64,000 nt of DNA from Escherichia coli (GTDB lineage Bacteria; Pseudomonadota; Gammaproteobacteria; Enterobacterales; Enterobacteriaceae). The position numbers were made by a program, and so were the translations under genes. This document shows positions 9,158-12,773 of this stretch, piece after piece. The stretch is taken from NCBI RefSeq assembly GCF_046105845.1, contig NZ_CP151004.1, one strand, 5' to 3'. The notes under the pieces were generated by a model. It ran no database searches. It was not told the origin of the DNA and worked only from the letters and a program-made list of their open reading frames with translations. Numbering within the stretch: position 1 is the first letter of the stretch; each line of letters opens with the position of its first letter.

Positions 9158-10522
9158 ATGAACGATTATAAAATGACGCCAGGTGAGCGGCGCGCGACCT
9201 GGGGTTTAGGGACCGTATTCTCGTTGCGCATGCTGGGCATGTTTATGGTTCTGCCGGTTCTGACCACATACGGCATGGCTCTGCAAGGTGCCAGCGAAGC
9301 ATTAATCGGTATTGCCATTGGTATTTATGGTCTGACGCAGGCCGTTTTTCAGATTCCGTTTGGCCTGCTTTCCGACCGCATTGGCCGCAAACCATTAATT
9401 GTCGGTGGGCTGGTGGTATTTGCCGCCGGTAGCGTTATTGCTGCGCTCTCTGACTCCATCTGGGGAATTATTCTGGGCCGGGCGTTACAAGGCTCTGGAG
9501 CGATTGCCGCTGCCGTTATGGCGCTGCTTTCCGATCTCACGCGCGAACAAAACCGCACCAAAGCGATGGCGTTTATCGGCGTGAGTTTTGGCATTACCTT
9601 CGCCATTGCGATGGTGCTTGGTCCGATCATCACTCACAAACTTGGGCTGCACGCGCTGTTCTGGATGATCGCTATTCTGGCAACAACCGGCATTGCATTG
9701 ACCATTTGGGTTGTGCCCAACAGCAGCACGCACGTACTCAATCGTGAGTCCGGGATGGTGAAAGGCAGTTTCAGTAAAGTGCTGGCGGAACCGCGGCTGC
9801 TGAAACTCAACTTTGGCATTATGTGTCTACATATTTTGCTAATGTCGACGTTTGTTGCCCTGCCAGGGCAACTGGCTGATGCGGGATTTCCGGCGGCTGA
9901 ACACTGGAAGGTCTACCTGGCAACGATGTTAATCGCCTTTGGCTCGGTCGTGCCTTTCATTATCTACGCTGAAGTTAAGCGCAAAATGAAGCAAGTCTTT
10001 GTCTTCTGCGTTGGGTTGATCGTGGTTGCGGAAATTGTGTTGTGGAACGCACAAACGCAGTTCTGGCAACTGGTGGTCGGCGTGCAGCTTTTCTTTGTGG
10101 CGTTTAATTTGATGGAAGCCCTCCTGCCCTCACTTATCAGTAAAGAGTCGCCAGCAGGTTACAAAGGTACGGCGATGGGTGTTTACTCCACCAGCCAGTT
10201 TCTTGGCGTGGCGATTGGCGGTTCGCTGGGTGGCTGGATTGACGGCATGTTTGACGGTCAGGGGGTATTTCTCGCTGGCGCAATGCTGGCCGCAGTGTGG
10301 CTGGCAGTCGCCAGCACCATGAAAGAACCGCCGTATGTCAGCAGTTTGCGCATTGAAATCCCGGCGGACATTGCCGCAAACGAGGCGTTAAAAGTGCGTT
10401 TGCTGGAAACCGCGGGCGTCAAAGAAGTGTTGATTGCAGAAGAAGAACATTCAGCTTATGTGAAAATCGACAGTAAAGTGACGAATCGCTTTGAGGTTGA
10501 ACAGGCAATTCGTCAGGCATAA
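9158..10522 (+). CDS. yajR: MFS transporter YajR (454 aa)
   Basis: ORF-track entry 9116..10522 trimmed to MNDYKMTPGERRATWGLG; polytopic MFS protein with C-terminal soluble domain. Confidence 0.85.
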   Translation: MNDYKMTPGERRATWGLGTVFSLRMLGMFMVLPVLTTYGMALQGASEALIGIAIGIYGLTQAVFQIPFGLLSDRIGRKPLIVGGLVVFAAGSVIAALSDSIWGIILGRALQGSGAIAAAVMALLSDLTREQNRTKAMAFIGVSFGITFAIAMVLGPIITHKLGLHALFWMIAILATTGIALTIWVVPNSSTHVLNRESGMVKGSFSKVLAEPRLLKLNFGIMCLHILLMSTFVALPGQLADAGFPAAEHWKVYLATMLIAFGSVVPFIIYAEVKRKMKQVFVFCVGLIVVAEIVLWNAQTQFWQLVVGVQLFFVAFNLMEALLPSLISKESPAGYKGTAMGVYSTSQFLGVAIGGSLGGWIDGMFDGQGVFLAGAMLAAVWLAVASTMKEPPYVSSLRIEIPADIAANEALKVRLLETAGVKEVLIAEEEHSAYVKIDSKVTNRFEVEQAIRQA

Positions 10523-10537
10523 AAAACGAGGCGAATT

Positions 10538-10610
10538 GCCTGCTGCGCTACGCTTACCAGGCCTACAAAGTTCTTGAGTTACAAATCGTTGTAGGCCGAA
10601 TTAGCTGTTC
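10538..10610. repeat. REP/BIME-like palindromic element
   Basis: GCCTGCTGCGCTACGCTTACCAGGCCTACAA followed by the inverted partner TTGTAGGCCGAA; classic REP-type sequence between the convergent 3' ends of yajR and yajQ. Confidence 0.55.
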
Positions 10611-10649
10611 ATGCTGCATTCGGCATGAACAAAACGCACATTGTCGCGA

Positions 10650-11141
10650 TTAATCGCGGAAGTTTTTGAACTGGAACGGCTGACCCAGATCGCCACCACG
10701 TACCATCGCCATGACAGCCTGCAAATCATCACGAGATTTACCCGTTACGCGGATCTCATCACCCTGAATTTGCGCCTGCACTTTCAGTTTGCTGTCTTTG
10801 ATCATCTTGACGATTTTCTTCTGGGTCGCACTCTCAATGCCCTGTTTCAGTTTCGCTTCCACAAACCAGGTTTTACCGCTATGAACGATATTTTCCGGTA
10901 CATCCAGCGAACTGCCTTCAATGCCGCGCTTCAGCAGCTTGGCACGCAGAATATCCAGCAACTGATTGACCTGGAAATCGGACTCGCTCAACACTTTGAT
11001 GGTTTTGCTGGCGTCGTTCAGCTCAAATGAGGCTTCAACATTACGGAAGTCAAAACGGGACTCCACTTCGCGGCTCGCGTTATCGACCGCGTTACGTGCT
11101 TCCTGAAGATCAACTTCAGAGACAATATCGAAAGATGGCAT
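10650..11141 (-). CDS. yajQ: nucleotide-binding protein YajQ (163 aa)
   Basis: ORF-track entry 10650..11186 trimmed to [26 protein letters not shown]. Confidence 0.9.
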
Positions 11142-11220
11142 CTTTTCCTCTCCCTTCATTTTTGATGCGAAGCATAATACCTGCAAAGTTAAATAACCAA
11201 CAGTCCTGCACCAGGACGTA

Positions 11221-11264
11221 TCCCTTAATTGTGCATAGTCGCAACAGCATGCACAATTAAGGGA
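11221..11264. repeat. perfect 16-bp inverted repeat with 12-nt spacer in the yajQ/panE divergent intergenic region
   Basis: TCCCTTAATTGTGCAT-agtcgcaacagc-ATGCACAATTAAGGGA read directly; a second short palindrome GTCCTGCACCAGGAC lies just upstream at about 11203-11217. Confidence 0.9.
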
Positions 11265-11308
11265 TAGCCTTATTGAACACCCGGAGTGGTTGCGGGTGAG
11301 GAGGAAGA

Positions 11309-12773
<1,465 letters not shown>

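Follow-up and report, generated by a model that had tools for sequence, protein, structure and literature searches.

A palindromic insertion between yajQ and panE as the probable core of two mirror-image promoters in Escherichia and the source of an RNase III hairpin

In divergent gene pairs like ilvY/ilvC and bioA/bioBFCD, the two core promoters lie within a dyad-symmetric region and overlap each other over about 50 bp, and these dyads are bound by the regulators IlvY and BirA. Symmetry-based bidirectional promoters as described by Warman et al. (bioRxiv 10.1101/2020.01.31.928960; PMC12825309) have starts 7 to 25 bp apart, mostly 18, and their -10 elements overlap. For the spacer between panE and yajQ, Gordon, Cameron and Pfleger (mBio, 2017; PMC5371410) reported an intergenic RNase III site at MG1655 position 444573, which was crossed by 96 reads in an rnc deletion and by 2 to 3 reads in the wild type (a 32- to 48-fold difference). 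These authors pointed out that either strand can fold into this hairpin, placed the site in the yajQ 5' UTR, and proposed that cleavage leaves behind a stabilising 5' hairpin; the yajQ mRNA had a half-life of about 6 min in the wild type, compared to about 3 min in the mutant. Our analysis of this spacer makes it probable that in Escherichia two sigma-70 promoters, mirror images of each other and fully overlapping, are built around a lineage-specific palindromic insertion as their core, with the RNase III hairpin as its secondary role.

We studied the locus in a 64-kb stretch of an E. coli chromosome (64,000 nucleotides of contig NZ_CP151004.1), called the window below and used for all positions unless another genome is named. 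The gene order is yajR, yajQ, spacer, panE, yajL, and thiI, with yajQ on the minus strand (10650–11141), panE on the plus strand (11309–12220), and a spacer of 167 nt (11142–11308) between these divergent genes. The coding sequences of panE and yajL overlap by ca. 38 nt (12177–12220, with the panE end at 12220), consistent with the panE-yajL operon named previously (PMC8743547). Within the spacer, the whole palindrome spans 11219–11266 and is composed of two perfect 18-bp arms—TATCCCTTAATTGTGCAT on the left (11219–11236) and its complement ATGCACAATTAAGGGATA on the right (11249–11266)—around the non-palindromic 12-nt centre agtcgcaacagc (11237–11248), which would be the loop of a hairpin in RNA and makes up most of a 17-nt promoter spacer in DNA. 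A previous sequence-only reading of this DNA had described a perfect inverted repeat of 16 bp; the perfection and the 12-nt spacing hold, and the arms are really 18 bp long. This is the longest perfect inverted repeat of the 64-kb window (the arms of the runner-up measure 12 bp), the number of such repeats expected by chance in 64 kb of random sequence with a loop of up to 20 nt is about 2e-5, and none of 100 shuffles had two matches to the arm. The same reading was right about a very stable RNA hairpin, given a predicted energy of about -30 kcal/mol on either strand with a stem of 18 perfect pairs followed by 2 more past a small bulge; as DNA, the palindrome folds at -18.7 kcal/mol (z = -8.6).

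The second small palindrome that the sequence-only reading had seen just upstream is present as well, as a small GC-rich hairpin with the sequence GTCCTGcacCAGGAC at 11203–11217. On the minus strand it has a U-rich tail, and it was the only structure that a terminator scan of the region flagged as terminator-like, on that strand. The large palindrome itself was rejected as an intrinsic terminator since it has an AT-rich stem that is not followed by a run of T on either strand. An Rfam scan of 10500–12000 with E values up to 10 gave two chance-level matches to snoRNAs (E about 9).

The spacer was found in 5,424 of 5,426 complete E. coli genomes and contains the palindrome once in each of these, with the 48-mer unchanged in 5,383 of the 5,424 (99.2%). 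Each genome gives two blast places, which reflect the palindrome matching its own reverse strand, and the locus is therefore single-copy. The search for further genomic copies that the sequence-only reading had proposed thus returned only this locus across complete E. coli genomes, and its judgement that the repeat is not REP-like agrees with one locus per genome. No second copy was found in the window with up to 3 mismatches allowed, and the E. coli genomes contain no dispersed copies of the kind that characterise MITE, REP, or ERIC elements. Five plasmid matches were discarded as chromosome-sized records of 1.2 to 4.9 Mb that are filed as plasmids, and the Citrobacter-type version of the element described below had no match among plasmids and E. 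coli genomes. Common variants are absent from the 48-mer, and the remaining 119 nt of the spacer show 3 differences when K-12 is compared with the window, a contrast that is not statistically decisive. In some E. coli strains, IS3-family elements interrupt the yajQ-panE spacer: strain 13TMH22 carries IS1203 directly after the CACAAT that ends at window position 11257, between the putative panE -10 and the start, and another genome (LT883142) has an IS3-family element near window position 11195.

Mapped transcription starts place the palindrome among the promoters of both genes. We used published Cappable-seq data for K-12 (supplement of PMC4782308, in U00096.2 coordinates and for the yajQ strand only) and for EDL933 under eight conditions (supplements of PMC10469882) and transferred the coordinates of both strains to the window base by base. 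EDL933 and the window are collinear in this region with 4 substitutions in 501 nt, none of them within the palindrome, and the coordinate map is therefore exact. The panE transcript starts at the A in position 11264 of the plus strand with a leader of 45 nt; this is the single panE start of EDL933 (510613), seen in 8 of 8 conditions with similar signal (ca. 31 to 63 units), and for K-12 it was taken over by sequence identity. On the minus strand, one yajQ start, which we call P2, is the A at 11221 with an 80-nt leader (K-12 U00096.2 443827; EDL933 510656 in all conditions). The strongest yajQ start in both EDL933 and K-12 is the proximal, conserved P1 (11166–11179), which starts at 11166 with a -10 element TATTAT at 11174–11179 and a 25-nt leader (K-12 443882, PMC4782308; EDL933 510711 in all conditions, PMC10469882). 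A minor yajQ start lies at 510726 in EDL933 (PMC10469882), and a published comparison table of 5' UTRs lists yajQ leaders of 80, 25, and 10 nt. The ROSE and Romero supplements have no entries for panE or yajQ.

The starts at 11264 and 11221 are each the A of a GGGATA that lies 3 nt inside the respective end of the palindrome, they point outward, and they are 43 bp apart. Reads from both starts enter unique flanks at once, so that mis-mapping within the repeat is of no concern. As both starts sit within the arms and face away from the centre, the main panE, P2, and P1 mRNAs do not contain the hairpin. The sequence-only reading had envisaged a hairpin in a 5' UTR, an expectation that does not fit with principal transcripts starting inside the palindrome; only read-through RNAs carry it whole. 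One such RNA begins within the panE coding sequence, at a distal start in the yajQ sense (11408, minus strand; K-12 443640) with the -10 element TACAAT at 11415–11420, and spans the whole hairpin; this start is not among the antisense starts listed for panE in the EDL933 excerpts examined. In the opposite direction, a panE-sense start inside the yajQ coding sequence (11002, plus strand) corresponds to the EDL933 antisense start 510875, and read-through from there would carry the hairpin as well. RNAs from 11408 and from the panE start at 11264 would overlap in sense and antisense over about 145 nt, which is possibly another RNase III substrate.

The sequence around the two starts is the same in either direction. 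On both strands it reads TTGTGC, 17 nt, CACAAT (-12 to -7), 6 nt, and A at +1, and from -40 to +3 the two strands are identical except for the central spacer. For panE, the putative -35 TTGTGC lies at 11230–11235 on the plus strand, 17 nt upstream of the CACAAT at 11252–11257 that, judged from the mapped start, would be the -10 element with its A at -11 and T at -7. For yajQ P2, the corresponding putative elements on the minus strand are TTGTGC at 11250–11255 and CACAAT at 11228–11233, and each -10 overlaps the opposite -35 by 4 bp. The arrangement has the general features of a divergent sigma-70 pair (a -10 whose positions -11 and -7 are A and T, and a -35-like hexamer 16 to 18 nt upstream), with hexamers that are weak compared to consensus (3 of 6 positions for the -35 and 4 of 6 for the -10). 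A consensus promoter scan of the region called no promoter because its thresholds are stricter than these hexamers. In the proposed mechanism, RNA polymerase moving rightward would use TTGTGC in the left arm and CACAAT in the right arm to start panE at 11264, and the same hexamers on the other strand would give rise to the secondary yajQ transcript P2 at 11221; since each -10 overlaps the opposite -35, only one orientation of RNA polymerase should be possible at a time. This promoter role at the level of DNA is probably the main one, which the sequence-only reading had missed, and we found no literature that identifies the panE promoter with the palindrome or explains how the palindrome arose.

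At the level of RNA, that reading's idea of a regulatory hairpin is real and already known for this exact locus, as a published RNase III site with a reported change in the half-life of yajQ mRNA (PMC5371410). Mapped base by base, the RNase III-dependent position corresponds to 11251 in the right arm. Purified RNase III cut in-vitro transcripts through the spacer that had been made in both senses from T7 templates beginning at window positions 11095 (panE sense) and 11449 (yajQ sense), and several cuts were located by 5' RACE (PMC5371410). The stem provides the approximately 20 bp (two helical turns) of largely uninterrupted double-stranded RNA that an RNase III substrate needs, and the outside starts at 11408 in K-12 and 11002 in EDL933 together with the 96 reads of the rnc deletion show that both arms occur on one RNA in vivo. 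RNAs from 11408 (yajQ sense) or 11002 (panE sense) would fold into the hairpin of 18 to 20 bp, and cleavage by RNase III would trim or insulate these read-through RNAs. On the yajQ side, the cleavage product would keep the small hairpin at 11203–11217 near its 5' end, and we infer that this is the stabilising 5' hairpin proposed by Gordon and colleagues. The small hairpin is specific to Escherichia among the relatives compared and lies 4 nt from the 5' end of the P2 transcript; it might attenuate or stabilise P2 and the long transcripts. Because P1 at 11166 lies downstream of the large hairpin, part of the reported effect of RNase III on yajQ half-life may be indirect.

To trace the palindrome among relatives, we compared the spacer in about 70 Enterobacterales loci. 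In most genera, the spacer has a length of 113 to 140 nt with three conserved features: the -10 element of yajQ (GCATAATACC on the opposite strand), that of panE (GCGCTATACT, in Salmonella TATAAT), and a hairpin in the panE leader. The latter (CACCCG...CGGGTG at 11278–11298 on the plus strand; CACCYG...CRGGTG in its general form) abuts the Shine-Dalgarno sequence and has undergone compensatory changes across the Enterobacteriaceae, with one pair column containing UA 10 times, CG 6 times, GC twice, and UG 4 times, so that it may be a conserved element acting on translation or stability. E. coli, E. albertii, and 8 genomes of the Citrobacter freundii complex (C. werkmanii, C. youngae, C. braakii, and others) carry an insert of 55 to 61 nt, placed exactly between the ancestral panE -10 and this leader hairpin. 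The site is empty, in the same spacer backbone, in C. amalonaticus, C. farmeri, and one further locus (L094), and the insert is absent also from Salmonella and Enterobacter. The suggestion of a miniature palindromic element in the sequence-only reading is therefore borne out to the extent that filled and empty sites exist among relatives, and fails in that the element is single-copy in each E. coli genome. Loose TA(G/T)G motifs flank the insert on both sides in Citrobacter, and its history may have been one gain with several losses or a transfer between lineages. When E. fergusonii and E. marmotae were sought via the PanE cluster, the only names found there were E. coli, E. albertii, and Shigella, and a contig encoding a PanE with 90% identity to that of E. 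coli ends short of the palindrome.

The two versions of the insert differ considerably. E. coli and E. albertii share the same perfect palindrome, and Escherichia has TGCACC (11207–11212) where relatives without the insert keep GCGCTATACT or TATAAT; the small hairpin at 11203–11217 is made from this decayed ancestral panE -10. Citrobacter keeps TATACT directly upstream of the insert, and its panE mRNA would therefore begin with the hairpin or carry it close to the 5' end. The Citrobacter copies are imperfect, with folding energies of -25 to -32.5 kcal/mol in the panE sense and -7 to -22 kcal/mol in the yajQ sense. Over the same 25 pair columns of a 9-sequence alignment, 87.4% of cells are paired in the panE sense and 71.7% in the yajQ sense, and G-U pairs occur in 9 pair columns in the panE sense and, within the Citrobacter rows, in only 1 in the yajQ sense. 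A palindrome that matters only as DNA should decay symmetrically, and the asymmetry in Citrobacter therefore points to selection on the panE-sense RNA. Within the Citrobacter copies there are plausible hexamers as well, TTGTAC-18 nt-AACAAT reading rightward and TTGTTC-18 nt-TACAAT reading leftward. For Escherichia, the alignment together with the single mapped start argues for promoter turnover, in which the palindrome with the mapped panE start would have replaced the decayed TATACT upstream and would now supply the panE promoter.

The yajQ-panE spacer is apparently a hot spot of small insertions. One locus (L010) has a different insertion in the same spacer, presumably an ERIC-like piece, and the spacer of a Kluyvera locus (L007) contains an unrelated insert of about 54 nt. 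The Salmonella spacer (L083) is Enterobacter-like, and the spacers of C. amalonaticus and C. farmeri (L086, L089, and L094) have an E. coli-type backbone with the first 47 nt identical, which suggests a mosaic or recombinant history of the region.

Three other explanations of the palindrome can be weighed against its probable role as a double promoter. That it is primarily a regulatory hairpin in the 5' UTR of the main E. coli panE and yajQ mRNAs, controlling their stability or translation, is improbable: the RNA fold is very stable on both strands and the RNase III study placed its site in the yajQ 5' UTR, but the sole mapped panE start and P2 face outward from within the arms, P1 as the major yajQ start lies downstream of the palindrome, both arms are found only on the minor long transcripts from 11408 or 11002, and Rfam has no match. 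This explanation fits best for Citrobacter, where the retained TATACT upstream of the insert and the pairing specifically in the panE sense indicate that the hairpin probably sits at the 5' end of the panE mRNA. It is less likely still that the palindrome is a functionless selfish or structural relic—either a decayed miniature inverted-repeat element or a product of cruciform formation or replication slippage. The filled and empty sites in related genomes and the repeated gain of other insertions by this spacer (the ERIC-like piece and IS3-family elements) are what one would expect of such a relic, but E. coli genomes have one copy each, neither version of the element matches a genuine plasmid, the Citrobacter-type version has no match in E. 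coli genomes, and the near-invariance of the 48-mer, the starts mapped inside it in two strains, and the experimental cleavage by RNase III all speak against a lack of function. Cruciform extrusion, which the sequence-only reading had considered, is unlikely because the 12-bp centre is non-palindromic.

The palindrome could instead be chiefly the operator of a symmetric regulator, NtrC or another factor, that co-regulates panE and yajQ in the way that BirA binds the bio operator, and its perfect dyad symmetry over both promoters has the appearance of an operator. The full dyad consensus of NtrC is TGCACCAnnnTGGTGCA, and this is absent from the sequence, which has an NtrC-like half-site TGCACCA at 11207–11213 inside the small hairpin as well as GTGCA/TGCAC motifs in the arms; these half-sites are an atypical 30 bp apart from centre to centre. 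Genomic SELEX gave an NtrC peak of 41% intensity in the spacer (U00096.2 443846, around window position 11202; PMC8743547), but this peak is of low resolution and does not place binding on the palindrome, and the panE start signal is similar in 8 of 8 EDL933 conditions. We therefore regard a primary operator function as unlikely, though an operator role could exist alongside promoter function. Operators for CRP, PdhR, and Fnr and a full NtrC operator were rejected on inspection, with the spacing or half-sites being wrong.

Promoter function alone does not explain why 18 positions are fully complementary in E. coli and E. albertii. Possible causes of this perfect symmetry are selection that acts on both senses of the RNase III hairpin, a putative symmetric DNA-binding protein, or the correction of quasipalindromes by intrastrand template switching. 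The latter is documented in E. coli (Lovett laboratory; PMC7202029), and its conversion of imperfect into perfect repeats would fit the perfect copies in Escherichia and the imperfect ones in Citrobacter, although here we infer this link and the perfection may be either ancestral or derived. A more far-reaching reading, which we hold only tentatively and consider rather doubtful, is that the palindromic insertion is a two-way promoter cassette which replaced the panE promoter of Escherichia and whose symmetry is maintained by concerted evolution of the arms or by dual selection. Concerted evolution would in this case proceed by intrastrand template switching, and dual selection would act on the mirror promoters in DNA and on an RNase III insulator in RNA that would destroy read-through and antisense transcripts coming from either side.

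Taken as a double promoter, the palindrome is real and functional, an ordinary though tidy regulatory element. It offers a compact natural example of promoter turnover, in which a small palindromic insertion at the ancestral panE start site seems to be an mRNA hairpin in Citrobacter and, in Escherichia, a two-way promoter next to a decayed old -10. The hairpin is found in read-through RNAs and not in the principal mRNAs, and the effect on yajQ stability therefore needs re-examination with strand and isoform resolution, which qualifies the published RNase III target. For engineering, a symmetric 48-bp sequence that drives two divergent genes would be a simple model for polymerase competition at overlapping promoters.

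Among known systems, the hairpin resembles the RNase III-processed stem-loops in the mRNA leaders of rnc, pnp, and adhE in having about two helical turns of near-perfect double-stranded RNA, an RNase III-dependent loss in vivo, cleavage in vitro, and an altered half-life of the downstream mRNA. Unlike in those cases, most transcripts of the flanking genes start inside the palindrome and never contain the hairpin, so that the substrate is read-through or antisense RNA and not the principal mRNA. The insertion shares with ERIC/IRU, REP/BIME, and miniature inverted-repeat elements that it is short, intergenic, and palindromic, has a patchy distribution among species, and can alter mRNA structure, but it is single-copy, showed no similarity to other loci, and shows no clear target-site duplication. 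With the symmetry-based bidirectional promoters of Warman et al. it has in common that primary starts on opposite strands point outward from one symmetric segment to which RNA polymerase can bind either way, with competition to be expected; it falls outside the definition of that class as its starts are 43 bp apart with each -10 over the opposite -35, and its symmetry is that of a perfect 18-bp repeat. The arrangement falls into a class that has long been known, the overlapping divergent promoters—as in ilvY/ilvC and bioA/bioBFCD, overlapping core promoters serve two divergent genes, but at yajQ-panE a regulator is putative and one and the same sequence makes up both promoters.
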